The notes: a model not told the origin generated them from the sequence alone. 64,000 nucleotides of DNA from an uncultured delta proteobacterium (GCA_963706575.1 CAVPNL010000006.1:800001-864000); one strand, 5' to 3'. Positions 5,147-57,788 are shown, counted from the first letter of the stretch. Numbers and translations are program-made.

Positions 5147-6877
5147 TTACGTTTTGTGCTGCTGGGCCTTGAGTATTTTTGCCCAGGTATCCCGTAAGGT
5201 TACCGTGCGATTGAACACCAGGGACCCCTCTGTGGAATCCTTCGTATCCACACAAAAATATCCCAGACGTTCAAACTGATAGCGATTTCCGGGTCCGGAT
5301 GTGGCCAGGCTGGGTTCAACCATGCAATTTGTTAATTTTTTCAGTGAATTAGGGTTAATAACATCGGTAAAATCTTTTCCGTCTTCCACCTCGTTGGGAT
5401 TTTCTTTTAAAAAGAGATGCTCATAGAGGCGCACTTCAGCCGCTTGCGCATGAGATGCTGAAACCCAATGCAGCGTCCCTTTTACCTTGCGGCCGTCAGG
5501 CGCATCACCACCGCGGGTTTGGGGATCATAGGTACAGTGCAGCTCGATCACCTCTCCGGTTGCGGGGTCTTTGACGACATCGACACAGGTAATAAAGTAA
5601 GCATAGCGCAGCCGGACTTCCCGGCCCGGGGCTAACCGGAAAAACTTTTTGGGCGGTTCTTCCATAAAATCATCCTGTTCGATGTACAGCTCCCGGGAAA
5701 AGGGAATTTTGCGGGTGCCCATAGCCGGATCTTCCGGATTGTTTATGGCATCCAATTCTTCCACCTGCCCCTCGGGGTAATTGTCAATGATGACCTTCAA
5801 GGGCCTCAGCACACCCATTACCCGGGGGGTAATTTTGTTCAGATGTTCCCGGATGCAATATTCCAACAGGGCAATGTCCACCATGCTGTCGGCTTTGGCC
5901 ACCCCGATCCGTTCGCAGAAATTACGAATGGATTCAGGGGTATATCCCCGTCGCCGCAAGCCGGATATCGTCGGCATGCGCGGATCATCCCAGCTGTCTA
6001 AGTGGCCTTCTTCCACCAGGCGGATCAGCTTGCGCTTGCTGAGCACCGTATAGTTGAGATTGAGGCGCGCAAACTCGATTTGCTGTGGATGGTAGACTTC
6101 CAGCTGGTCCAGGACCCAGTCATAGAGTTCTCGATTGATTTCAAATTCCAGGGTACAAATCGAATGGGTGATTCCTTCGATCGAATCCGAGAGGCAGTGG
6201 GTAAAATCATACATGGGATAAATCACCCACATACCCGCGGTGCGATAATGGGGGACTTTCTTGATCCGATACAGGGTGGGATCGCGCATCAGCATATTGG
6301 GGGACGCCATGTCGATTTTGGCCCGCAGCACATGCTCGCCCTCTTTATATTCACCGGCCCGCATGCGTTCAAACAGATCCAGGTTTTCTTCGATCGTGCG
6401 CTTACGATAGGGACTGTTTTTACCGGGTTGCGTCAGGGTGCCGCGATATTCCCTGATCTGATCAGAGCTCAGGCTGTCTACGTAGGCCTTGCCTTTTTTG
6501 ATGAGCTGAACGGCAAATTCAAATAGTTGCTCAAAATAATCGGAGGCATAGTACTGGCGATCCTGCCAGTCAAATCCCAGCCAGCGAACGTCCCCCTTGA
6601 TGGATTCGACATATTCCACCTCTTCTTTGGCCGGGTCGGTATCATCAAAGCGCAGATTGCAAAGGCCGCCGTATTCTTTGGCCAGCCCGAAATTTAAGCA
6701 GATGGATTTCGCATGCCCGATGTGCAGATACCCGTTGGGTTCCGGCGGAAAGCGCGTATGGACCCGCCCGTCGTTTTTACCATTTTTAATGTCTTCATCG
6801 ATGATGTGCTTGATAAAATTCGGCGGCGGTGAAAATTCGCCTGCCGTCTTTGAGGATTTGGTGCTGGCTGATTTCAT
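5147..6877 (-). CDS. glnS: Glutamine--tRNA ligase
   Basis: [45 protein letters not shown] and YQFERLGYF. Confidence 0.97.
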
Positions 6878-7331
6878 AATGCTTCTTCCTTAATAAGGAC
6901 AGTGGCTCATATTCGATAACAAATTAGAATGATTTTTTTATAAAATCAAACTATTTGAGAAATATCAACGGGTTTGACGCTAAAACGATCGTTTGTCCGA
7001 AAAAATAAGGGTAAAATTGGAGTGGTGGGCGCCATCTACGACGTTCATAACGACAGGGTGACATTCATTCAAAATGGGAAATGGCGTCGGTTCGCTATTT
7101 CAAGAAAATCTTCTGGCCTCTGGAAAGGCTGAGGTTGCCAAAGCCTTCAGGTCATGCCATAAATACCGCATCCATATATAATTGAGATCTCAGCGCAACG
7201 GTTCCGATATTTTGAGTTCACCGGTTGAGGGTTTATGCTTGCGATTATCCTGCACGGTAAGGTTTTAATCTTTAATCCTATATGCCAATGATTGATCTGA
7301 CTAACTTGGGAAGTTGATTCCGGAGGGTATT

Positions 7332-8615
7332 ATGAAAAAGTGGCTGACACTTCTTCTGGCTATCATTGTTTTCTTTACAGGGCAGACCGTTTTTGCTCAA
7401 GGCGTTCGGGTGGGTCCGGATGGTGAATTTTCACAGCAAACCCTCAAGCTGCCGTACGCTTTTTACAACGAAAATTTCGGGTTCGCCGGAGGATTCGTTT
7501 ATGGTAAAGTCGGCAGCCTTCAGAAGCAGGCCACCATTCTGACCACGGCCATGGTTGGCACCAAAGGGGGTATGGGTTTTCTGGTGGGCAAAGATATCCA
7601 GATGCCGCGCATCGAGCGCCTGTTTTTGGATCCCATCGTTTCTGTGGGCTACTTTAGCGACAGTAAGTCCTTTGTTAACGGCAACCCTGATTTTGCGAAT
7701 GAACGCGCCGGCAGCAATGACTCGGACGAGGACAACTATGTTGAAGGCGACGGCTGGGACAATTTTTTCCGACTCAAGTTCAAATATCTGCTTCCGGTCG
7801 GCAACGGCCGGGATGACATCATCACCACTATTAAAATGAAGGACGGACTCCCGATATCCGAACCCAAAGGCGGAACCTCCTTGAATCCATTCAAAAGCGG
7901 CCGGAGCTACCTGGAGATGCGGCCCTTTTACCGCTCCCAGGAGATCGACGGCGACGATGTCGATGAAACGGTAAAAACCAACGGCCTTGATTTATCACTG
8001 TTCTGGGACAACCGTGACTTTGACGCCAATCCTTCCAAGGGATTCGGCTTCCGGGGCAAGATGTCGCGTGATTTTGGCTGGCTTAACAGCTCGGATTCAT
8101 GGACCAACCTGGAAGGTGAGCTGGACGTCTACTTTCCGTTAAAAATGGGGAACTGGCTGCGCCAGGGGGTGCTGGCCCTCAATCACTGGACCTCCTATTC
8201 GCCGACCTGGAATAAGGAATCAGGCGGGGAGGTTACCAACCGGCCGCCGGCTTACACCGGCTCGACCCTGGGCGGTCTCTGGCGCATGCGCGGCTTCCCC
8301 TCACAACGCTTCAACGACAGGGCCGCCACCTATTACGCGGCGGAGCTGCGCTTGATTCCCGAATGGAATCCGTTTAACAACTGGCCGCGCGTTCAGAAAT
8401 ATGTGGGCATCAAATGGCTGCAGTTCGTGCCCTTTGTGGAAATCGGGCGGGTGGCTCCCGAGTGGAGTTTTTCACGGCTGCACTCGGACATGAAATGGGA
8501 TGCCGGTCTGGGAATCCGGGCCTTGGCGCAAGGCATCGTGATCCGCATCGACTCGGCCTATTCCAATGAAGGCGTCGGTGTCCAGATGATGATCTCCCAG
8601 CCCTTTCAATTCTAA
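7332..8615 (+). CDS. Omp85/BamA-TamA family outer-membrane beta-barrel without obvious POTRA domains
   Basis: Signal peptide, LGGLWRMRGF (variant of the VRGY lid motif), DAGLGIR and C-terminal QPFQF; GGAGG RBS. Confidence 0.75.
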   Translation: MKKWLTLLLAIIVFFTGQTVFAQGVRVGPDGEFSQQTLKLPYAFYNENFGFAGGFVYGKVGSLQKQATILTTAMVGTKGGMGFLVGKDIQMPRIERLFLDPIVSVGYFSDSKSFVNGNPDFANERAGSNDSDEDNYVEGDGWDNFFRLKFKYLLPVGNGRDDIITTIKMKDGLPISEPKGGTSLNPFKSGRSYLEMRPFYRSQEIDGDDVDETVKTNGLDLSLFWDNRDFDANPSKGFGFRGKMSRDFGWLNSSDSWTNLEGELDVYFPLKMGNWLRQGVLALNHWTSYSPTWNKESGGEVTNRPPAYTGSTLGGLWRMRGFPSQRFNDRAATYYAAELRLIPEWNPFNNWPRVQKYVGIKWLQFVPFVEIGRVAPEWSFSRLHSDMKWDAGLGIRALAQGIVIRIDSAYSNEGVGVQMMISQPFQF

Positions 8616-8717
8616 TTCTGTCAGAACTTTCCACAGCGCTTGATAAAGTATAGCGAAAACGTCCAGACACTTTTTGATTCTTATACGTTAACTGGAAAAT
8701 GGATTCGAAAGTGATAT

Positions 8718-48215: not shown

Positions 48216-50552
48216 TTACTGATTCCAGAACCTCTGCAGACCATCTGCCAGCTGCCGGGGGTCCCGCACCCAGACCGGATCCCATTCTTCACGCAGCAAG
48301 GATTTATACTGATAGCGGGCATAGCGTTGATCAATTAAGAGCACCACACCGCGGTCCTTTTCCGCCCGGATCACACGGCCGGCAGCCTGCAGCACCCGGT
48401 TTATGCCCGGGTAAAGATAGGCATACTCAAAACCACCGTTCAAAGTACGGGTAAAATATTCCTTGATTAATTCCCTTTCCAGACTGATGCCGGGCAGGCC
48501 CACTCCGACGATCACCGCTCCTACCAGACGGTCACCGATCAGATCGATACCCTCACCAAAAATACCGCCCATCACCGCAAAACCGACCAATGTTTGCGGG
48601 CTGCCATTCGTAAATCGCTGTAAAAACGCTTCTCTTTCAGGTTCCGACATCCCGGAGGTTTGCAGGATGGTTTGAATTTGCGGGTTGCGGTTAGTAAATG
48701 AATGATAGATTTTGCGCATGTATTCATAAGAAGGAAAATACAGTAGATAATTTCCCTTCTTTTGTTCTACCAGGGCGGATATGGCCTGGGATACCTGGGG
48801 TACGGTTTGGTCCCGCTGACGATAGTAGGTCGAAATCTGATCGGAGATAAACAGGCCCAGGTTTTCACCGGGAAAAGGTGAATGCAGAATCAGGTGGCGA
48901 GCCGCGGCGTCACAGCCCAGGATTTTTTTAAAATAATCCATCGGTGTCATGGTGGCCGAAAATAATACGGCTGTCTGACAGCGGCTCAGCGCATTTGTAA
49001 GATGGACCGAAGGATCGATACAGAACAGTTTGAGTTTCAGATTCTTGCCGATTTTTTCATAACAGCTGGTGTAGCATTCATCATATTGGTCGGCAACTCT
49101 GGTAAATCCGGATATTGCAAAATACAGTTCCAGTAAGCTTTCGCGAAACGCTGTTTTGATGTTGTTGGAAAGCCAGCGCTCGGTAATGAAAAGAAATCCT
49201 CGCAGGAGCGGAATCAGGTCATCCGGTAGGGTTGTTTCCGCCAGCGGATTGCCAGATTCTTCACATTTTTTTCTGGCTTTTACGAGCCAGGCGTTGATCC
49301 GCCCCAGACTTTTGAAAATATGCGGCAGCTCATTTTTTAGCTGCCGTCGAACGTCCAAAACCGGTTGTTTGAATATCTCCGCCGAAAACATTTCCCGGGA
49401 GCGGTCGACCAGATTATGGGCTTCATCGATTAAAAAGATATAGTCGCCATTTTCTTCCTGGAAAAATCGACGCAAATATACCCGTGGATCAAAGACGTAA
49501 TTGTAATCACAGATGATGCAGTCGGCCCACAGAGTGAGGTCCAGGGAAAGCTCAAAGGGGCACACGCGATGCGTGCTAGCCGCCTCAACAATCTGTTCGC
49601 GTGTAAAGGCATCCCCGGCAAAGATGGCTTTGACAGCGTCGTTGATGCGGTCATAGTGGCCCCGGGCATATTCACACTCTTCGGGATTGCAGGCACTATC
49701 GGGGCAAAAACAGATTTTGTCCTTCGCAGTCAGGGTGACTGATTTCAATCGGAGGCCTTTGGCTCGCAATTCATCCAGGGCCTTTTCTGCCGCTATCCGT
49801 CCGGTGGTTCGGGCGGTAAGGTAAAAAATCTTTTGACTCACGCTTTCAGCAATGCATTTTACGGCCGGGTAGAGCACGGCGATCGTTTTGCCAATACCGG
49901 TCGCCGCCTCAACTATCAATTGGCTATTATCGCGCATCGCACGGTATGCTTCAACGGCCATTTGGCGCTGACCGGGCCGGTAGGTTGCAAAAGGAAATTT
50001 CAAATCCTGTATGGATTCATCGCGCCTGCGGGACCAGTCGATGACCGTTCCCGCCCATTCCAGATAACGCGCAACGAGATCCTCAAAAAAAGTCTCCAGT
50101 TCTGATATGGCAAAAGAGAGTTGATACTCACGGACTTCGCCGGTATCGATCTGGTAATAGGTCAGCCGGGTTATAATTTCTTCCAGACCCTGCTGGTGCC
50201 CATAAATATAGGCATATGTTTTGACCTGGGCCCAGTGAACCGGTTGCTGATTTTTTTCAAAATAATTCGGATTTCGGGTGGTGGTTTTAATTTCTTCAAT
50301 GATGGTTCGATCCGGTTCGGCATAAACACCGTCAATGCGGCCGCCGATAATGAGGCGAAGTCGATCCGTTTCAACCTGGTGGGAAATCGAAACCTCGGGC
50401 TGATAGGTATCGGGACGTGAATTTTGAATTTTTTGATGTGCCCGGATCGCTTCGACCGGGCGGCTGGAACCCAGGAACTCAAATACCAGGTCTCCTGACC
50501 GGAAAACATGTTCGATGAGTTCCCGCACCGCAATTTTTAGTTCGCTTTTCAA
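48216..50552 (-). CDS. DinG/XPD-family Fe-S DNA helicase with N-terminal PD-(D/E)XK nuclease domain
   Basis: GRIDG...EEIKT...QVKTY nuclease motifs; RPGQ, ATGIGKT, Fe-S Cys (ICFC, CNPEEC, CPFE), DEAH, SAT, FPSY, EGID and QAAGRVIR. Confidence 0.9.
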   Translation of the reverse strand: MKSELKIAVRELIEHVFRSGDLVFEFLGSSRPVEAIRAHQKIQNSRPDTYQPEVSISHQVETDRLRLIIGGRIDGVYAEPDRTIIEEIKTTTRNPNYFEKNQQPVHWAQVKTYAYIYGHQQGLEEIITRLTYYQIDTGEVREYQLSFAISELETFFEDLVARYLEWAGTVIDWSRRRDESIQDLKFPFATYRPGQRQMAVEAYRAMRDNSQLIVEAATGIGKTIAVLYPAVKCIAESVSQKIFYLTARTTGRIAAEKALDELRAKGLRLKSVTLTAKDKICFCPDSACNPEECEYARGHYDRINDAVKAIFAGDAFTREQIVEAASTHRVCPFELSLDLTLWADCIICDYNYVFDPRVYLRRFFQEENGDYIFLIDEAHNLVDRSREMFSAEIFKQPVLDVRRQLKNELPHIFKSLGRINAWLVKARKKCEESGNPLAETTLPDDLIPLLRGFLFITERWLSNNIKTAFRESLLELYFAISGFTRVADQYDECYTSCYEKIGKNLKLKLFCIDPSVHLTNALSRCQTAVLFSATMTPMDYFKKILGCDAAARHLILHSPFPGENLGLFISDQISTYYRQRDQTVPQVSQAISALVEQKKGNYLLYFPSYEYMRKIYHSFTNRNPQIQTILQTSGMSEPEREAFLQRFTNGSPQTLVGFAVMGGIFGEGIDLIGDRLVGAVIVGVGLPGISLERELIKEYFTRTLNGGFEYAYLYPGINRVLQAAGRVIRAEKDRGVVLLIDQRYARYQYKSLLREEWDPVWVRDPRQLADGLQRFWNQ

Positions 50553-50821
50553 TCGATTTCTAACTCAACCCTCGAAAAAAAATTCTCCATTTTTAAAAAT
50601 TTGAAACGCTTAATTTAAATTATCCGATGATGGGATATTAATTTACTCTGTGGGCTTATCTGAAGATTGTCAACAAATCAAGGAAGAATCAATTTAATCT
50701 GGGAAGGAGACTGAAGGGATGTATGGTGTTGCGCCTTCCGGCTTGCGGGTCAAGAGCGAAGGCAAAGAAAACGCGCAACCCGTAACCCGCAACTCGTAAC
50801 TTAAGAGTTTGACAAAGGAAC

Positions 50822-51364
50822 CTATTCCTGAACGACAAAATGGACCCTTCTGTTTTTTGCGCGGGTCTTTTCGTTCCCGCCGGTGTCGACGGGACGCTCC
50901 TTGCCGAAACTGACCGCAATGAGCCGGGACCTGTCGATGCCTTCTTTAATTAAAAATGATTTTACAGCACCGGCGCGCCGATCTCCAAAAGCAATATTGG
51001 TTTCCCTGGAACCGCGTTCATTGGTATGTCCTTCGATAATAACCGAGACATCCGGGTATTTTTTTAGAAATTCAGCTTTGCGATATAAAATCGTACGGGC
51101 TTCCGGCTGCAGACGATAGCTCCCTTTCTGAAAATAGATATCTTCCTGCATCACCTGAGTTTTGGCCGCCAGAAACCGACGCTGCTCGGCTTCTTTTCTT
51201 TGACGCTCTGCCTCCAATTCCTTCTGGCGTTCTAACTCGGCCGTTTCTGTCTCTATTTTCGATTCCTCTTTGACAGTCACCGTTTTTTTTGCGCAGGCTG
51301 ATAAAATAGCCAGACCCGGGATTATCAGTAAGAGAATTAAGCCCGTTTGCAATGTCTTGTGCAT
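50822..51364 (-). CDS. OmpA/Pal-like peptidoglycan-associated lipoprotein
   Basis: Lipobox LSAC, IEGHTNERG, RRAGAVK, SFGKERP and KNRRVHF. Confidence 0.88.
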   Translation of the reverse strand: MHKTLQTGLILLLIIPGLAILSACAKKTVTVKEESKIETETAELERQKELEAERQRKEAEQRRFLAAKTQVMQEDIYFQKGSYRLQPEARTILYRKAEFLKKYPDVSVIIEGHTNERGSRETNIAFGDRRAGAVKSFLIKEGIDRSRLIAVSFGKERPVDTGGNEKTRAKNRRVHFVVQE

Positions 51365-51556: not shown

Positions 51557-51597
51557 TTGACACGCCTCTTTTTTCTGTTATAGTTCATGCCATGAAC
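51557..51597 (+). promoter_or_regulatory. Sigma70 promoter of marR overlapped by a palindromic operator
   Basis: TTGACA (51557-62), 16-nt spacer, TGn-TATAGT (51579-84); GTTCATG-C-CATGAAC at 51583-51597. Confidence 0.7.
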
Positions 51598-51618
51598 CAT
51601 ATTGCAAATAGAAATTCA

Positions 51619-52083
51619 ATGGACGATACGGTCGATGTTCCGGAATATCAATTGAAACAATTTCAAGAGCTTATACTTAAATTATTTCAATGCTGCCAGG
51701 AACGGATGCAGTATCAATGCGAGCGTTTCGGTTTACCGGACGCCGAATTCAGGTGCCTGATGCTGTTTGGCGAAGAGCGTTATCTTACGGCCAAAGGAAT
51801 TGCGCTGAAAATGAACGTGGTCAAAAGCCGCGTATCAAAAATTATCGAAGGATTGCTCAAAAAGAAGTTGGTTCAACGCATCAAAGATCCCGAGGACTCC
51901 AGGGTCAGCCTGCTCAGCCTGACATCCCAGGGGCATGAAAAAGTAAATCATATCAATGAATTTCTAAATGATGTCCACCACCAGGCCCTGCTTCAGATCG
52001 CGCCGGACCAGCGCAAAACCGTCCTGACCAACCTGGACATTCTCAAGGCCTCGATGGAAGCGATAAAGGAAATGATGGTGTGA
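51619..52083 (+). CDS. MarR family transcriptional regulator (Cys-rich N-terminus); start could be 51592
   Basis: Winged HTH KGIALKMNVVKSRVSKIIEGL and DPEDSRVSLLSLT. Confidence 0.9.
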   Translation: MDDTVDVPEYQLKQFQELILKLFQCCQERMQYQCERFGLPDAEFRCLMLFGEERYLTAKGIALKMNVVKSRVSKIIEGLLKKKLVQRIKDPEDSRVSLLSLTSQGHEKVNHINEFLNDVHHQALLQIAPDQRKTVLTNLDILKASMEAIKEMMV

Positions 52084-52138
52084 TTTATTTTTCATAGTCG
52101 CTTTAATCGTCAAAAGGAATATATCTTTTAGGAAAAAG

Positions 52139-52153
52139 GTTCATAGTATCAAC
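52139..52153. promoter_or_regulatory. Second candidate MarR operator
   Basis: GTTCAT-agt-ATCAAC has one mismatch to GTTCAT-N3-ATGAAC and lies upstream of the DsrE2-like gene. Confidence 0.55.
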
Positions 52154-52232
52154 TAAATACAACTAAAATGTCATTTAAGTTTCATAATTAACTGGAAAAC
52201 AGGGTTAACACCATAACTAAAGGAGGCAAATT

Positions 52233-52784
52233 ATGGATATGCAAAATATCGAAACCGAATTCACAGAACTTAAATCCCAGCTGGCGGCTCTGGATAAAAA
52301 AATCGCCGAAGACAAGCTTTCAATGGTGGTTTTCAGCGGCGATCTTGACAAAATCATCGCCGCTTTTGTTATTGCCACCGGTGCAGTTGCCATGGGGATG
52401 GACGCCGTCATGTTTTTCACTTTCTGGGGAACCCCGGTTCTCAGAGACGCAAAGAAGAGCGTGGGCGGTAAGGACACATTCGGTAAAATGTTCGGCGCCA
52501 TGCTGCCCAAAGGGCTGGGCCAGGTCAAGCTTTCCCAGATGAATATGGGGGGCATGGGTACGGCCATGATGAAATCTTTGATGAAAAAGAAGAACGTGGC
52601 GTCACTGGAGCAATTTTTGGAAATGGCGGAAGAACTCGGCGTGCGGATCTTTGTCTGTGAAATGTCTATGGATCTGATGGGATTTAAAAGAGAAGAAATG
52701 ATCGATTATAAAAATTTGACGTTTTGCGGGGTTGCTAAATTTTTAGAAGAAGCCGCTAACAGCAAGGTTCAGCTTTTTATTTAG
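52233..52784 (+). CDS. DsrE2-like (DsrE/DsrF/DrsH family) sulfur carrier
   Basis: MVVFSGDLDK, FFTFWG, LSQMNMGGMG and VCEMSMDLMG (conserved Cys). Confidence 0.9.
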   Translation: MDMQNIETEFTELKSQLAALDKKIAEDKLSMVVFSGDLDKIIAAFVIATGAVAMGMDAVMFFTFWGTPVLRDAKKSVGGKDTFGKMFGAMLPKGLGQVKLSQMNMGGMGTAMMKSLMKKKNVASLEQFLEMAEELGVRIFVCEMSMDLMGFKREEMIDYKNLTFCGVAKFLEEAANSKVQLFI

Positions 52785-52873
52785 TAGCGATGCTATTTGA
52801 GTCATTTTTATCCTTTTAGGAAGAATTTTAAAAACCACGAAACCCCCGGTTAATCCGGAATAGGAGGAACAAA

Positions 52874-53119
52874 ATGAGTGATGATATCAAAGTTGATAAG
52901 GTATTTGATTTGAAAGGTTTACCGTGCCCGATGCCGGTTGTGAAAGTCAGCAAAGGGATCAAAGAGGTTGAGATCGGTCAGGTAATTGAGGCTCAGTCAA
53001 CAGATCCCGGCTCATTGACGGACTTTCCGGCCTGGGCCAGGACCAGCGGAAACGAAATATTAAAAACTGAACAAGATGATGGTGATGTTATAAAGTTTTA
53101 TATCAAACGTAACGTATAG
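52874..53119 (+). CDS. tusA: Sulfurtransferase TusA family protein
   Basis: DLKGLPCPMPVV (CPxP) and TDPGSLTDFPAW. Confidence 0.9.
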   Translation: MSDDIKVDKVFDLKGLPCPMPVVKVSKGIKEVEIGQVIEAQSTDPGSLTDFPAWARTSGNEILKTEQDDGDVIKFYIKRNV

Positions 53120-53167
53120 AACACGCATGCTAATCTTTTTTTAATTTGAAACTAAGGGGAGGTCGTT

Positions 53168-53878
53168 TTGCAGACGCTGTATTATATCATCTTGGTGCCG
53201 ATGGTCTATGTGGCCTTTGCCACTTTCTTTATCGGCACCGCGGTCCGGTTGATAAAGATTTTTAAAGAACCCAGCCATCCGGCCACGCTTCAGATTTATC
53301 CTGAGAAAAAACCCAGATGGCTATGGGCCTTGCATGACACGTTTCTGTTTCCCACCGTCCGCAGACACAAACCGCTGCTGTGGGTATTTTTGATGGCCTT
53401 TCACATTTGCATATTATTACTGATTATCGGTCATCTGGAGTTGTTTGGTGAAATCGAGACGCTCCAATTAATTCCCCATGAGATTTTTCTGGGACAGGGG
53501 CTTGTTGGATTGATTGCATCGATTGCCTTACTCTATTTCCTATTTCGCCGCTTTATTTCACCGGTGCGCGAACTTTCGGTTCCGGAAGATTATTATCTTT
53601 TAATCTTGCTATTTCTGGTGGTTCTTTTTGGCAGCCAGATGGATTGGGCCCGAAGATGGTACTTTTATGAGGAGCTAGGCGTTGATCATTACCGGGAATA
53701 CCTTTCCAGCCTCTTATATTTTAGGCCCTATTTACCGGGAGAGGTGACCGATACGGGTCATTCTTTTATGCTGGTGTTGCATGTATTTTTCGCGAATTTA
53801 TTTTTGATGTTTTTCCCGTTCAGCCAGCTGATGCATTCGTTCTTATCGTTGCCGATGAACAAGCTCAGGCGCGGTTAG
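53168..53878 (+). CDS. NarI/DsrM-like membrane di-heme cytochrome b
   Basis: About 5 TM helices; His pairs FH...GH and LH...FPFSQLMH; LFRR and EDY motifs. Confidence 0.85.
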   Translation: MQTLYYIILVPMVYVAFATFFIGTAVRLIKIFKEPSHPATLQIYPEKKPRWLWALHDTFLFPTVRRHKPLLWVFLMAFHICILLLIIGHLELFGEIETLQLIPHEIFLGQGLVGLIASIALLYFLFRRFISPVRELSVPEDYYLLILLFLVVLFGSQMDWARRWYFYEELGVDHYREYLSSLLYFRPYLPGEVTDTGHSFMLVLHVFFANLFLMFFPFSQLMHSFLSLPMNKLRRG

Positions 53879-53963
53879 CGGTTCAAAGTTCTGGGTTCAG
53901 AGGTTCAGGGTTCTTGCCTCTGACTTTTGTTGTCTAACCTTTGAACCTTGAACCGTTGAACCA
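53879..53963. repeat. Heptamer-periodic inverted repeat (GGTTCAG / TGAACC)
   Basis: ggttcaaagttctgggttcagaggttcagggttc ... aacctttgaaccttgaaccgttgaacc. Confidence 0.75.
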
Positions 53964-54029
53964 GGGGACTGACACCATAAATAGTAATAATTAACACCTA
54001 ATAAGACAATTATATATCAGAGGGATTTG

Positions 54030-55301
54030 ATGATGGATCAAAAAACACGTGATGATTTGCTTAAACTTTTTCAAGGCAAATTAAATGAAGCCATGCGGTT
54101 TTATCTGGAAACCTGCACCCGCTGCGGTGTATGCACCGAGGCCTGTCATGTACATGCTTCTATGGGGCAGGTCAAATATATTGCAGCATACCGCGGAGAA
54201 ATTGTGCGACGACTTTATAAAAAGTATTTCAAAGGTCGCGGAAAAGCTTGGCCGTCAGTGGGTGAGGCCAAAGAGCTCAGCGACATGGCCCTCGAGGAGC
54301 TGTATGACGCGGCTTACTCGTGCACGGGCTGCCGGCGCTGCATGGTGTATTGCCCGTTTGGGATTGACACCCAGATGCTGATGTCCATTGCCAAGTTGCT
54401 GCTGGTTGGCGCCGAATCCGAACCTGAAATCCTTACGCTGCTGGCGGACACCTCTATTGAGAAGGGTAAATCCATAGACTTGTTCAAAGAAAATTTTATG
54501 AAAGGCATCAAAAGGCTTGAGGCTGAAGTCGTTGAAAAATGGAAAATGGAAGCAGAAGAGACCGCCATTCCGGTGGATGTTGAGGGCGCGGATCTGCTCT
54601 ATGTTGCTCTGGCCGGAGCCCATTCGATCATTCCGGCGGCCGCTATTTTCAATGCAGCCGGCGAAAACTGGACCCTGAGCTTCTTTGAGGCCGTTAACTT
54701 CGGTGCCTTTGTGGGAGATCCCACCAAGACGAAGCTGATCTTGGATCGAATTGTCAATGAAGCCAAACGACTCAAGGTTAAAGAGGTCTGTATCTGTGAA
54801 TGCGGGACGGCTTATCGGGTAATGAAACAGCTTACCGGGAAACAGCCGTTTAAGGTCAGCTCGATTACCGAAGTCCATGCCAGATATATCCGGGACGGCC
54901 GCATCAAACTGGATAAAACCAAACTGGACGGGGCCGTCACCTACCATGATCCCTGTCAAATCGCGCGCAACGCCGGCGTGATGGATGAACCGCGCTATAT
55001 TTTGAAACATCTGACGGATGATTTCAGAGAACTTACTGATGATCCGCGCTACAACTGGTGCTGTGGCGGTGGTGGTGGACTGGTTGCCATGGGGGAAGAT
55101 ACCCTGGATTTTCGCATGAAATCCGCTAAGGTCAAGGTTGATCAGGTCAACGACACCGGCGCCCGCATTTTGGCCACTGCATGTGAGAACTGCCACGCCC
55201 AGCTGGACGATTTAAACAAGCATTACGAAATGGGTGTTGAGGTCAGATTTTTGAGTTCCATGATTGCCGATGCTTTAATACAGGACGCACAGGAGGTATA
55301 G
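54030..55301 (+). CDS. DsrK/HdrD/TmcB-like Fe-S oxidoreductase (2x[4Fe-4S] plus CCG domain)
   Basis: CTRCGVCTEAC, CTGCRRCMVYCP, CECG, YHDPC, CCGGGGG and ACENC. Confidence 0.9.
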   Translation: MMDQKTRDDLLKLFQGKLNEAMRFYLETCTRCGVCTEACHVHASMGQVKYIAAYRGEIVRRLYKKYFKGRGKAWPSVGEAKELSDMALEELYDAAYSCTGCRRCMVYCPFGIDTQMLMSIAKLLLVGAESEPEILTLLADTSIEKGKSIDLFKENFMKGIKRLEAEVVEKWKMEAEETAIPVDVEGADLLYVALAGAHSIIPAAAIFNAAGENWTLSFFEAVNFGAFVGDPTKTKLILDRIVNEAKRLKVKEVCICECGTAYRVMKQLTGKQPFKVSSITEVHARYIRDGRIKLDKTKLDGAVTYHDPCQIARNAGVMDEPRYILKHLTDDFRELTDDPRYNWCCGGGGGLVAMGEDTLDFRMKSAKVKVDQVNDTGARILATACENCHAQLDDLNKHYEMGVEVRFLSSMIADALIQDAQEV

Positions 55302-55467
55302 CCCTAAAATATCCGGCCTCGGGTTAAAAGCGCTACGTTTTTGCCAACCTGAAGACAACTATTTTCCATCCGACGCAAACAAAGTCCAAGCCAGATTTTT
55401 AATTGACCAAATCAAGATAGGGTGTCTGGATTTAAAAACAAGCATCTTATTTTCGCGTATTTTTTTA

Positions 55468-55518
55468 TTGACAATATATACTACAAAGTGGGATATAAAT
55501 ATATCACAATGTGATATA
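55468..55518 (+). promoter_or_regulatory. Candidate promoter with a 19-bp palindrome
   Basis: TTGACA at 55468-73; TATATCACA-A-TGTGATATA at 55500-55518. Confidence 0.5.
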
Positions 55519-55594
55519 ATAACGGTTCACAACTTTATATTTTTATTTTATGGGGCAACTTAAGAACAGTTCATTTATTCAAAGGGGACCAAAA

Positions 55595-55882
55595 ATGAAA
55601 ACCGTTGCTGTGCTTATTAACGATAAGGAGAAGCAATATGAAGGGCTGCGCTCGAGTCTGGGCATGCTGCTTTATAATACCTGGGTGCAGATGTTCGTGG
55701 TGAATGATGAAATTGCCAACATGGATGAAGCCTATCACGATAATATGGAGTTCCTCGATGAGATGGAGGGGGAACGCTTTTCAAACAACAAAACCAATGT
55801 TGAAAAATACGGTTTCAAATACGCATCCATTGAAGAGATCGGAGAAATGCTGCAAAAAGCCGACCTTGTTATTCCTTTTTAA
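55595..55882 (+). CDS. Small DsrE/DsrF-like protein
   Basis: MKTVAVLI..YEGLRSSLG and C-terminal EMLQKADLVIPF resemble the DsrE/F fold; contains no Cys. Confidence 0.65.
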   Translation: MKTVAVLINDKEKQYEGLRSSLGMLLYNTWVQMFVVNDEIANMDEAYHDNMEFLDEMEGERFSNNKTNVEKYGFKYASIEEIGEMLQKADLVIPF

Positions 55883-55895
55883 GGAGGCATCTAAA

Positions 55896-56075
55896 ATGAA
55901 AATACTTCATATTCTTAGAACCCGGCCTGAGGCTACTGTTGAAAAATTAATGCAATCGGCGACCAACGGAGACCGATCAAAGGTGACCGAGCTTTATGAA
56001 TTCAAAGACGACCGAGATTGGGCGCAGCTCGTGGATGAAATTTTTTCCAACGACAAGGTAATAAGCTGGTGGTAA
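55896..56075 (+). CDS. Small DsrH/TusB-like protein (59 aa)
   Basis: MKILHILR...DWAQLVDEIFSNDKVISWW resembles a shortened TusB/DsrH; AAGGAGG RBS. Confidence 0.65.
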   Translation: MKILHILRTRPEATVEKLMQSATNGDRSKVTELYEFKDDRDWAQLVDEIFSNDKVISWW

Positions 56076-56133
56076 CCCGCTCGCCATAGATACAGATTCA
56101 GGACTCAGAAACGAGAAGAAGGGAAGACACGTT

Positions 56134-56439
56134 ATGGCTGAAAAATTAGGTATCCTGGTCAGCTCAGATAAACACCTCGATTATGTGATCAATTTGACTG
56201 AGGCCGCGCATAAAAAAGACAAAGCGGTTGAAATATTTTTTACCGGGAAAGGTGTGCTTCTGACTCAGGCTTCGGATTTTAAAAAACTGATCGGCAAAGC
56301 CAAGATGACCCTGTGTGATGTGAGCTTCAGGGCTTTGAAGCTTGAGGGCGATGTCCCTGGACTCGGATTTAAAGATTTTGCCACCCAGGCAAAGAATGCG
56401 GATCTCATTGAAAAAAGTGACCGTTATTTGGTGTTCTAA
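56134..56439 (+). CDS. DsrE-family protein
   Basis: IFFTGKGV, conserved-position Cys (TLCDVS) and LIEKSDRYLVF. Confidence 0.8.
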   Translation: MAEKLGILVSSDKHLDYVINLTEAAHKKDKAVEIFFTGKGVLLTQASDFKKLIGKAKMTLCDVSFRALKLEGDVPGLGFKDFATQAKNADLIEKSDRYLVF

Positions 56440-56491: not shown

Positions 56492-56839
56492 ATGGATGTG
56501 AGCTGGAAAAGAAAAAAGACCATAAATGGAACAAATGGTGGCGGGGTTAATCTTGTCGCTGAGCTGGTTGACCATTATCATACGGCTGGCAACGCCAGTG
56601 GTAATTTTAATACCCAACTCGGCACCATCGGTGAGAAATTTCTAAATTCAAAAGCGCGCGACATGAGAGCATTCCACCAGGGGTTGTTTTGGGAGCATGT
56701 CGATCGGGAATTAAATCGCCTCATCTTGAAACCGCAGGAGAGGCAAAAAATAGAGTCTACTATTTCAGAAACGGTTCCGAGGCCCGATAGGGACTGGGCT
56801 CTTTGGAGTGTGACCTGTATTCCGCGCTATGATCCTTAG
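56492..56839 (+). CDS. Hypothetical protein
   Basis: 115-aa ORF filling the space before the terminator; no recognised motif. Confidence 0.5.
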   Translation: MDVSWKRKKTINGTNGGGVNLVAELVDHYHTAGNASGNFNTQLGTIGEKFLNSKARDMRAFHQGLFWEHVDRELNRLILKPQERQKIESTISETVPRPDRDWALWSVTCIPRYDP

Positions 56840-56936: not shown

Positions 56937-57788
56937 TTATTTACAGTGACCATCCTGTATTGCCCACTGCAACCCGTCACAATCACCCAGGTCGCAGGCC
57001 CTCCTGAAATCCGCACAGGAGTCTTTGATTTTTTTCATCTGGAAATAAACCAGAGCCCGATTCAGGTGCGCCTTTGCGTATCTGGGTTTGATCTGAAGGC
57101 ATTTATTGAAATCTGCTTCGGCTTGTTGGTATTGATCCAGGGCGTAGTAGGCATTGCCGCGATTGTTAAGCGCCTCGGCATATTGCGGTTTTATCCGGAT
57201 GGCCTGGCTGAAGTCATTGATGGCCTGCTGATGAAGCTCTAAATTGTAAAATGCCAGGCCCCTGTTGTTGTAGGATTCGGCCATTTTAGGGTTGGCCGCT
57301 ATGGCCTTATCCAAGTAGGTTTTGGCCTTGCCGGGATCCGTGTATTGCCCGTTTTGCCACAGGGTCTGTGCGGCCGCATTCCAGTCCGTATCTTTTGCGT
57401 CAGGGGCTTTTTTAATTCTGCGTTGCGGAAGTTTTATCGGTGCATCTCCCTTTTTAAGGCTCGGGTCCTGTTTCATCAGCGATGCAGGATCCCCTGCTAT
57501 ATCACTGACGAATTTGTACATCTGGCCCATCATTGCAGCGCCAAATACCCCCACGAGTACAAGCGGCGTCAGCTGAATGATCGTCCACAAGATCATTATT
57601 TTAGTGATTGCCAGGCTTTTGTGCTTGATCCAGCCCCAGATAAATGTCCATAAACCACAGGTAATAATCCCGATAATGCCTTGCAGCACCCCGCCGTGTT
57701 TAAATTGCTTAATCAGAACAATGATAAAAACGATCAAACTGATGAGCGCCAACACCGGGAACAAAAGACCGATACCCATTTCAAACAT
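56937..57788 (-). CDS. Membrane-anchored TPR protein
   Basis: Three N-terminal TM segments and YNNRG-type TPR repeats. Confidence 0.85.
   Translation of the reverse strand: MFEMGIGLLFPVLALISLIVFIIVLIKQFKHGGVLQGIIGIITCGLWTFIWGWIKHKSLAITKIMILWTIIQLTPLVLVGVFGAAMMGQMYKFVSDIAGDPASLMKQDPSLKKGDAPIKLPQRRIKKAPDAKDTDWNAAAQTLWQNGQYTDPGKAKTYLDKAIAANPKMAESYNNRGLAFYNLELHQQAINDFSQAIRIKPQYAEALNNRGNAYYALDQYQQAEADFNKCLQIKPRYAKAHLNRALVYFQMKKIKDSCADFRRACDLGDCDGLQWAIQDGHCK

Follow-up and report, generated by a model that had tools for sequence, protein, structure and literature searches.

Herein, we describe a sulfur-carrier locus in a stretch of DNA from an uncultured delta proteobacterium (GCA_963706575.1, CAVPNL010000006.1:800001-864000). 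The whole stretch of 64,000 nucleotides is called the window, and positions are counted from its first letter. Eight open reading frames (ORFs) lie on the + strand between 51592/51619 and 56439, behind a promoter-like site whose -35 hexamer stands at position 51557. They encode a MarR regulator, two sulfur carriers (DsrE2-type and TusA), a membrane subunit and a catalytic subunit of an oxidoreductase related to DsrMK (here M and K), and three small proteins (S1 to S3). A sequence-only reading of the window had named these domains in eight co-oriented genes, as the ORF calls and domain matches confirmed, and had taken the eight to be one cluster. The features are as follows.

51557..51584, + strand: sigma-70-type promoter-like site of marR (TTGACA, 16 nt, TATAGT, with TG; 11/12 consensus matches, consensus match only)
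51583..51597, no strand: predicted operator 1, palindrome GTTCAT-N3-ATGAAC, over the -10 box and a possible leaderless ATG at 51592
51619..52083 (start may be 51592), + strand: MarR-family repressor (PF12802, E 3e-10)
52139..52153, no strand: predicted operator 2, before dsrE2, one mismatch (site picked from this window)
52233..52784, + strand: DsrE2-type sulfur carrier (PF13686, 171.9 bits; Cys142)
52874..53119, + strand: TusA sulfur carrier, predicted partner of K (PF01206; CPMP at 18-21, Cys18)
53168..53878, + strand: M, di-haem cytochrome b of NarI/DsrM type, TTG start (PF02665)
54030..55301, + strand: K, DsrK/HdrD-like catalytic subunit (two [4Fe-4S] (Fer4) motifs, one complete C-terminal CCG, PF02754)
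55468..55518, + strand: promoter-like region of a second unit (TTGACA, then two short palindromes; -10 spacing non-canonical)
55595..55882, + strand: S1, DsrF type II homolog (95 aa, 11.1 kDa)
55896..56075, + strand: S2, DsrH type II homolog (59 aa, 7.1 kDa)
56134..56439, + strand: S3, DsrE type II homolog (101 aa; Cys61)

The intergenic gaps from marR to S3 measure, in order, 149, 89, 48, 151, 293, 13 and 58 bp. Before S1, TTGACA is followed at 55479-55518 by two palindromes of type RCCAC-N3-GTGGY, the second of which reads TATATCACA-A-TGTGATATA (55500-55518). Among the three small ORFs, S3 alone matches Pfam (PF02635), below the cut-off. The absences listed by the sequence-only reading also held. 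The window contains no dsrAB, dsrC or dsrMKJOP, which sit elsewhere in the host genome (on contigs C9 and C4 and at C6:200-205 kb, respectively); none of its 150 ORFs of at least 80 aa has two or more CxxCH motifs, as a multihaem cytochrome would; and for YedE/YeeE there is no PF04143 match anywhere in the host genome (G000), an assembly of 5.67 Mb with 91.8% completeness and 6.4% contamination.

Gene order was compared in the 80 best GTDB loci of 222 qualifying stretches (K identity 77-96%), which are related and not independent; counts refer to the loci whose sequence extends far enough to show the gene. M precedes K in all 80. Ahead of M-K, tusA was present in 70/71 loci, dsrE2 in 65/66 and marR in 55/57, so the linkage of M-K to tusA and dsrE2 is conserved in relatives. 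The three small genes stand behind K in only 6/52 loci. The gaps, the separate promoter-like region before the small genes and the synteny lead us to divide the locus in two: judged by these features, the conserved unit is marR-dsrE2-tusA-M-K (the cassette), and the small genes are a second unit. One eight-gene cluster, as first proposed, did not survive this comparison, since 46 of the 52 loci have no small genes behind K and these genes have their own upstream signals.

The nearest relatives of the locus bear Desulfobacterales titles, and the matches include a cultured carrier (L053, record title Desulfacinum infernum DSM 9756), in which a FadL gene is also present. When 400 other genomes were sampled evenly across the phylum, K reached E 1e-100 or better in 23; of the 14 carriers listed, none falls in the same order, and the distribution is therefore patchy. 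Of 20 regions fetched from this sample, 18 show M-K with dsrE2 and tusA adjacent, at K identities as low as 59%. The same order, dsrE2-tusA-M-K, recurs in a sister clade (K identity 44-48%), both in L180 and in 15/15 of the metagenome loci long enough to show tusA (n=26, without taxonomy); ArsR is encoded upstream in the eight sister-clade loci printed. Outside the phylum, only G430 itself carries the cassette among 101 genomes of its own phylum, which points to transfer or misbinning. Two loci differ in layout. In L112 (G368, 5594-8656) the order is rearranged to dsrE2-M-tusA-K, with an ArsM-like methyltransferase gene upstream of marR; L079 shows an apparent tandem duplication of the cassette, which may be an assembly artefact of a long-read metagenome-assembled genome (MAG).

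K belongs to the DsrK/HdrD-like proteins and lies outside their canonical groups. Its best NCBIfam match is DsrK, at 262.6 bits against a cut-off of 400 (the host's canonical DsrK scores 729.6), and it reaches 224 of 735 and 210 of 750 bits on the TmcB and HmcF models, respectively. It is 26-29% identical to DsrK and shorter (423 aa vs about 545). In a 37-row IQ-TREE phylogeny (LG+G4), a subset of a 94-row FastTree, the cassette K proteins form their own clade (100/98), apart from DsrK (100/100) and Tmc/Hmc (100/100). The host genome encodes a further M-K pair as well as Tmc and Hmc, labelled as such by gene context and tree position. The tree and the sub-cut-off scores thus agree with the sequence-only reading that the pair is neither DsrMK nor TmcBC nor HmcEF. 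Several fusions were seen among K-type proteins: P0125, an M-K fusion, is sister to the cassette clade in the tree; P0137 is an M-K fusion too; P0139 is fused to a response-regulator receiver; and P0130 (549 aa) carries a C-terminal DsrC domain.

The active site of K was compared with that of DsrK. For DsrK, a cryo-EM preprint assigns Cys329 as a persulfidated sulfur relay, His331 as a possible proton donor, Asp500 as the replaced ligand, Phe258 as a wedge by which the DsrC trisulfide is opened, and His210 and Glu292 as contacts (10.64898/2026.08.25.746951). These A. fulgidus numbers were mapped in the host's own DsrK by offset from the relay Cys, where F, E and H are found at the corresponding distances (-71, -37 and -119). 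PDB sequence searches with K returned EtfD (9ojn) only, and a fold search with its model (predicted local distance difference test, pLDDT, 88.6) returned EtfD, LutA and HdrB; these searches yielded no DsrK and no K-TusA structure, so the active-site residues were mapped by alignment only. The five-Cys CCG site of K consists of C309, C344, C345, C385 and C388, and its relay Cys258, at the DsrK Cys329 position, lies in the motif C256-E-C258-G-T260. The two [4Fe-4S] motifs, the complete CCG site and the relay Cys each occur in 97/97 K rows, and the Glu before NFG is kept as Glu220. The Phe258 loop is gone through a 7-residue deletion, His331 is replaced by Thr260 in 97/97 rows and His210 by Ser in 92/97, Asp500 corresponds to Cys388, and an extra Cys256 is present in 97/97. 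The Asp is not universal among DsrK homologs; in A. fulgidus, there are extra dsrMK copies that have Cys instead (PMC10861901). The sister-clade K keeps ECGH, and its Phe loop is missing as well.

The membrane subunit M has His79, His89, His205 and His223 in 87/87 rows, aligned with those of the host's DsrM, TmcC and HmcE. It scores 45.1 bits on the NCBIfam DsrM model (cut-off 300), and a PDB sequence search with it found no match. Where the host's DsrM reads R-H-L-R, M has G88-H89-L90-E91, and the long loop insertion is missing. By the criteria of the preprint 10.64898/2026.08.25.746951, this alignment suggests an open quinol site, if we infer correctly which arginines are meant there. The gap between M and K contains short GGTTCA-type repeats (53880-53960), which also turn up as loose ends in other assemblies and are probably a dispersed intergenic repeat.

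By gene content the host is a sulfate reducer: dsrAB, dsrC (whose product ends in two Cys) and aprA are present, and the canonical dsrMKJOP, for which the sequence-only reading had proposed to look, exists as a separate locus, so that the pair in the window is not the only copy. M-K might then be a spare, stress-induced DsrMK (of DsrM-1 type) that reduces DsrC-bound sulfur, with tusA and dsrE2 merely co-regulated. Consistent with this are the best NCBIfam match of K, the presence of dsrA in 58 of 73 K-carrying genomes (the 23 of the phylum sample and those of 50 loci selected from the 80 for their longer contigs), and the Cys-bearing extra dsrMK of A. fulgidus (PMC10861901). In the other 15 genomes, dsrA was not found. 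Four have a DsrK over the cut-off and probably just miss dsrA; G308 has aprA, and G423 was left out of the aprA search. In the remaining nine (G096, G239, G254, G300, G368, G413, G414, G420, G430) neither aprA nor a DsrK over the cut-off was found; DsrC had no match in seven of these, while in G096 and G239 its matches were weak, partial and interrupted by stops. The K gene of G239 carries a frameshift, and that of G254 is cut by the contig end. That four unlinked loci are missing together argues against assembly gaps, although the genomes are MAGs. The pair thus occurs where DsrC, dsrA, aprA and DsrK were not found, in line with the earlier proposal that it works apart from DsrC. With the deleted Phe loop, the replaced His, the separate clade and the score below the DsrK cut-off, these carriers make a spare DsrMK very unlikely.

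Related genes were observed in these genomes. G423 contains a different M-K pair (L181, 2127-5282, - strand) with a DsrC-like gene directly behind it, in a genome without a dsrA match. In the host, two CCG-type proteins (C11:51466-52461 and C6:898561-899589) have one in-frame TGA each inside the DsrK-model match, possibly encoding selenocysteine; similar matches occur in G166, G376, G414, G421 and G433.

The carrier proteins retain their reactive residues. Cys18 in the CPMP motif of TusA is present in 89/89 rows, and the protein scores 42.8 bits on YedF and 39.9 bits on TusA, both below cut-off. In the DsrE2-type protein, Cys142 is found in 88/88 rows and Cys165 in 49/88. It passes Pfam PF13686 and scores 83.9 bits on NCBIfam DsrE2 (cut-off 210), with one hydrophobic stretch (residues 29-64) where DsrE2 of the A. 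vinosum type has two transmembrane helices. As the sequence-only reading had suggested, K (35-row alignment) was co-folded with TusA (20 rows) in ESMFold2, next to three unrelated control proteins. The pair scored 0.73 and the best control 0.00; the mark used is reached by 116/157 solved complexes and 2/215 mismatched pairs, counts that apply only approximately to alignments of our own making. Contacts agreed by at least 97% between runs, and the partner pLDDT was at least 85. The predicted interface joins TusA 17-20, in the CPMP motif, to K 148, 194-198, 220, 386 and 390; on the K side, it draws on the shortened loop, on the conserved Glu and on residues next to the cluster ligands. The model therefore supports binding, without showing it, in which the CPMP motif would dock at the mouth of the K active site. 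The substrate is probably TusA-bound sulfane sulfur.

The regulator has Cys25-Cys26 in 75/75 rows, Cys46 in 70/75 and His120 in 64/75. This window first revealed a palindrome, GTTCAY-N3-ATGAAC, which overlaps the -10 box of marR. In the upstream regions of marR, the best site has at most two mismatches in 66/74 loci vs 20/1480 shuffles, and a weaker copy upstream of dsrE2 reaches this level in 42/74. From these patterns, MarR is predicted to bind the palindrome as its operator and to sense persulfide. A genome-wide scan returned 17 sites with at most one mismatch, of which the first site in the window is the sole perfect one; no wider regulon could be read from them. The sister-clade regulator comes from a different family (ArsR) with its own Cys, so Cys-bearing regulators recur. 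Four RNA-library assemblies contain relatives of all eight genes at identities of at least 85%, and in X1 and X2, which belong to one study, contigs span dsrE2-tusA; no bridge from K to the small genes was seen among the RNA-library pieces listed, beyond which there are 842 more. None of this was used as evidence of expression, as the contigs come from other strains, may represent DNA and have depths that cannot rank genes.

Neighbouring genes were clustered from the ORFs of 98 loci, namely the 80 and 18 of the 20 phylum-sample regions (two duplicates were dropped). One neighbour was frequent: an outer-membrane channel of FadL/TodX type (PF03349, verified for two members), present in 37 of the 78 loci with 1.7 kb downstream, 36 times behind K and once divergent upstream. 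FadL prefers hydrophobic solutes, and from this neighbourhood the channel may carry S8 or polysulfane. Sulfur-related genes were rarer: a rhodanese-MBL fusion near 10 of the 98 loci, sat near 7 and qmoB near 8. Rarer still were homologs of a methyltransferase (4/98), whose start we take to resemble ArsM, and of permeases (1-2); at 1-4 of 98 loci, an arsenic or metal link was rejected as the principal explanation.

These data bear on whether the cassette might act on another substrate, such as a TusA-S-SSO3 thiosulfonate, selenium, a persulfide or disulfide of low molecular mass, or a metal(loid)-thiol adduct to which MarR would respond. An arsenic-responsive MarR with a CC-plus-C cysteine set is known, and TusA stays below both the YedF and the TusA cut-offs. 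In archaea, the sulfur bound to DsrE3A and TusA is a thiosulfonate and not a persulfide, and DsrE2B showed no reaction with any of the compounds tried (PMC4175335). However, sulfur-related neighbours outnumber the methyltransferase and permease genes, the sister clade replaces MarR by another Cys-bearing family, and a five-Cys cluster with a relay Cys suits S-S chemistry. We therefore rate such a substrate as quite improbable.

The three small genes have published counterparts. The DsrE of the YTD cluster and two hypothetical proteins form DsrEFH type II, a TusA-to-DsrC sulfur transferase with active Cys67, which in vitro accepts sulfur from TusA and delivers it to DsrC; the published DsrH type II measures 6.8 kDa (PMC13293266). 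S3 matches were found in 80/400 phylum genomes, flanked by S1 and S2 homologs, mostly by tusA, and in L216, L225 and L226 by yeeE. Iterated profiles of S3, S1 and S2 recovered all three in 41/45 loci around S3 matches (three repeat shorter loci). Cys61 of S3 aligns with the conserved Cys of yeeE-tusA-linked DsrE proteins, and the A-I-C-A-D-S context of the Cys in YTD-type DsrE equals, by eye, that in the mutagenesis primers of the paper (PMC13293266). Based on the profile matches, the flanking genes and the aligned Cys61, S1, S2 and S3 are identified as DsrF, DsrH and DsrE type II. The sequence-only reading was thus right that they are DsrE/F/H-like; they are no fixed part of the system and are already published.

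Could the eight genes nevertheless be one dedicated pathway, with DsrEFH type II as the substrate of K or a fixed relay? They are co-oriented and adjacent here and in the six loci mentioned, a FadL gene stands between K and the small genes in L017, L024 and L027, and DsrE type II is matched in 11/23 K-carrying phylum-sample genomes vs 80/400 overall, a comparison among kin that are not independent. Against this, most loci have no small genes behind K, K has no match in 69 of the 80 genomes where DsrE type II was matched, and four of five tested cassette-carrying genomes have no DsrE type II match. The second unit has a promoter-like region of its own, and TTGACA with similar palindromes, unlike the marR operator, precedes S1 in 5/7 S1-carrying relatives (by eye). 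A single pathway is thus the least credible of the alternatives. It is plausible that DsrEFH type II, here without its usual yeeE-tusA, shares the TusA of the cassette, because G000 has no YeeE match and its two further TusA-domain genes lie elsewhere, one of them beside a cysteine desulfurase-like ORF. In L191, L195 and L205, a DsrE2-type gene stands directly behind tusA-dsrEFH type II.

On balance, we lean slightly towards the five-gene unit being a sulfane-sulfur-induced membrane quinol:TusA-persulfide oxidoreductase that works mainly in the reductive direction and releases sulfide. Polysulfide or S0 would modify the MarR cysteines and lift repression; where present, the FadL-type channel would pass hydrophobic S8 or polysulfane across the outer membrane. 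Cys142 of DsrE2 would gather sulfane sulfur and load Cys18 of TusA, and TusA-SSH would hand the sulfur to Cys258 of K, with Cys256 as a possible resolving thiol. Electrons would run from quinol through the M haems and the two [4Fe-4S] clusters to the five-Cys noncubane cluster, which would reduce the sulfur to HS- with two quinol electrons. Zero-valent sulfur would thereby be removed, and perhaps respired. The cassette would be an anaerobic counterpart of the cst/yrk operons, with a reductase in place of the persulfide dioxygenase. Much of the earlier proposal, a quinol:protein-persulfide oxidoreductase that uses TusA or DsrE instead of DsrC, is retained here on the strength of the clade, the synteny, the DsrC-free occurrence and the co-fold; its small genes are not.

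The direction is less certain. The S0/HS- couple lies at about -270 mV. Menaquinol, at about -70 mV (PMC10861901), is a weak donor for it, and sulfide oxidation is therefore easier on standard potentials. Running in reverse, M-K would oxidise cytoplasmic sulfide with quinone and load TusA, an SQR-like entry from which sulfur would pass through DsrEFH type II and DsrC to DsrAB in sulfate reducers, or into cofactors. DsrEFH type II directly behind K fits this route, as does a host without a yeeE match and with dsrAB and dsrC, and the co-fold is blind to direction. Yet the cassette also occurs in genomes where dsrA, dsrC, aprA and DsrE type II were not found, so that loaded TusA would have no dissimilatory sink there; one search for DsrE type II in such genomes gave 0/5, and in the phylum sample G096, G239, G254, G300 and G368 have no match. 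A repressor-controlled operon with a FadL-type channel also fits the import and disposal of S0 better than its production. We consider the reverse direction unlikely. The reductive direction is favoured because no sink for loaded TusA is known in the Dsr-less carriers and because the layout mirrors repressor-carrier detoxification operons (PMC9918477); that menadiol drives DsrMKJOP in vitro (PMC10861901) was counted for reduction as well.

Several observations weigh against a reductive TusA-persulfide oxidoreductase, beyond the redox potentials and the frequency of dsrA among the carriers. The FadL gene is missing at this locus. The Dsr-less carriers are interrelated MAGs, 90-100% complete where a value is given (none for G413, G414, G420 and G430). 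The menaquinone markers MqnC and MenB were not over cut-off in any of five genomes, G000 included. Two of the 20 phylum-sample regions (L117, L118) contain a solo M-K with no adjacent dsrE2 or tusA. Conservation at the 32 residues of the predicted interface is no higher than in K as a whole (0.86 vs 0.85), and the co-fold controls were unrelated proteins, with no paralogous TusA or canonical DsrK among them, while proteins closely related to a true partner can also reach the mark. The activity, inducer and direction of the unit are predictions from sequence. The solo pair of L118 was observed behind a TauE-family gene.

A more far-reaching extension is that the cassette supports S0 respiration without Psr/Sre molybdoenzymes or DsrC and, where TusA-SSH becomes a branch point with DsrEFH behind it, S0 disproportionation; we hold this only tentatively, as somewhat unlikely. 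For respiration, FadL would admit S8, DsrE2 would open it, TusA would carry the sulfur, and M-K would reduce it in a quinol redox loop. For disproportionation, part of the TusA-SSH would be reduced by K, and part would pass via DsrEFH and DsrC to DsrAB for oxidation. No marker explains sulfur disproportionation (PMC12998232, PMC13293266), and the predicted sulfur reductase of Desulfurella amilsii went undetected in its proteome (PMC6378623). If the favoured function is true, HdrED/DsrMK-type enzymes reach a new protein carrier, TusA; the sulfide-forming step can be tested with four small-to-medium proteins and the existing DsrMKJOP assay; and DsrK-like matches in MAGs that lack dsrAB are no leftovers from sulfate reduction. 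If disproportionation is true, it would provide a complete cytoplasmic mechanism for S0.

Downstream of S3 lies a 115-aa ORF (56492-56839, + strand) with no Pfam match and a best Atlas score of 0.80, a lead only. In 8 loci its homologs follow either K or the DsrEFH type II genes, and in L058, L063 and L066 they lie upstream of marR in divergent orientation; His62 is present in 11/11 rows of the family and Cys109 in 10/11. The ORF may belong to the sulfur module. The flanks (48216-51364 and 56937-57788, -) encode a DinG/XPD-type helicase with a nuclease domain, an OmpA/Pal lipoprotein and a TPR membrane protein, which are syntenic only in close relatives and unrelated to the sulfur module.

The part families of the cassette are known; their combination, the active-site variant and the predicted TusA docking are undescribed in the searchable literature. 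No description of the cassette was found in the openly readable literature, subscription papers being outside the scope, or in the available passages of PMC8528874, PMC13490349, PMC12998232, PMC11094781, PMC6378623, PMC4175335 and PMC10504309. Within this literature, the idea of an undescribed system stands for the five genes and falls for the small ones, published as DsrEFH type II. Related contexts have been reported: dsrMK beside dsrEFH type II in archaea, with 'DsrK-TusA-DsrEFH' and 'DsrK-DsrK-' contexts in two isolates (PMC13293266), and, in D. amilsii, a dsrABC-MK operon that includes dsrE-like genes (PMC6378623).

DsrMK, the core of DsrMKJOP and a menaquinol:DsrC-trisulfide oxidoreductase (PMC10861901, 10.64898/2026.08.25.746951), shares with M-K the NarI-type di-haem subunit, two [4Fe-4S] clusters, one noncubane CCG site, a non-ligating relay Cys and the Glu before NFG. 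In contrast, M-K forms its own clade, with a shorter K, a changed active site and tusA/dsrE2 under MarR or ArsR, and it is found where DsrC and DsrAB were not. TmcBC and HmcEF have the same architecture, a single five-Cys CCG site and a similar length; M-K differs in its sub-cut-off scores, separate clade and operon without a cytochrome c partner. S1-S3 resemble DsrEFH type II, the former YTD cluster (PMC13293266), in the active Cys and in the F-H-E order, also seen in the yeeE-tusA-linked L225 and L226, but have K upstream instead of yeeE/yedE and a dedicated tusA. The cst/yrk operons (yrkD-yrkE/dsrE-yrkI/tusA, SQR, PDO; PMC9918477) likewise combine a thiol-bearing repressor with DsrE2-type and TusA carriers. 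The cassette, an operon without PDO or SQR, has a quinone-linked Hdr-type membrane complex and not an O2-dependent dioxygenase, and MarR or ArsR instead of CsoR/CstR. Finally, sHdr with dsrE-tusA (PMC11094781, PMC4175335) also places TusA and DsrE carriers beside an Hdr-related enzyme. That enzyme is soluble, HdrABC-like, lipoate-dependent and oxidative, whereas the cassette, in an operon without HdrA or LbpA, encodes an HdrED-like membrane pair.

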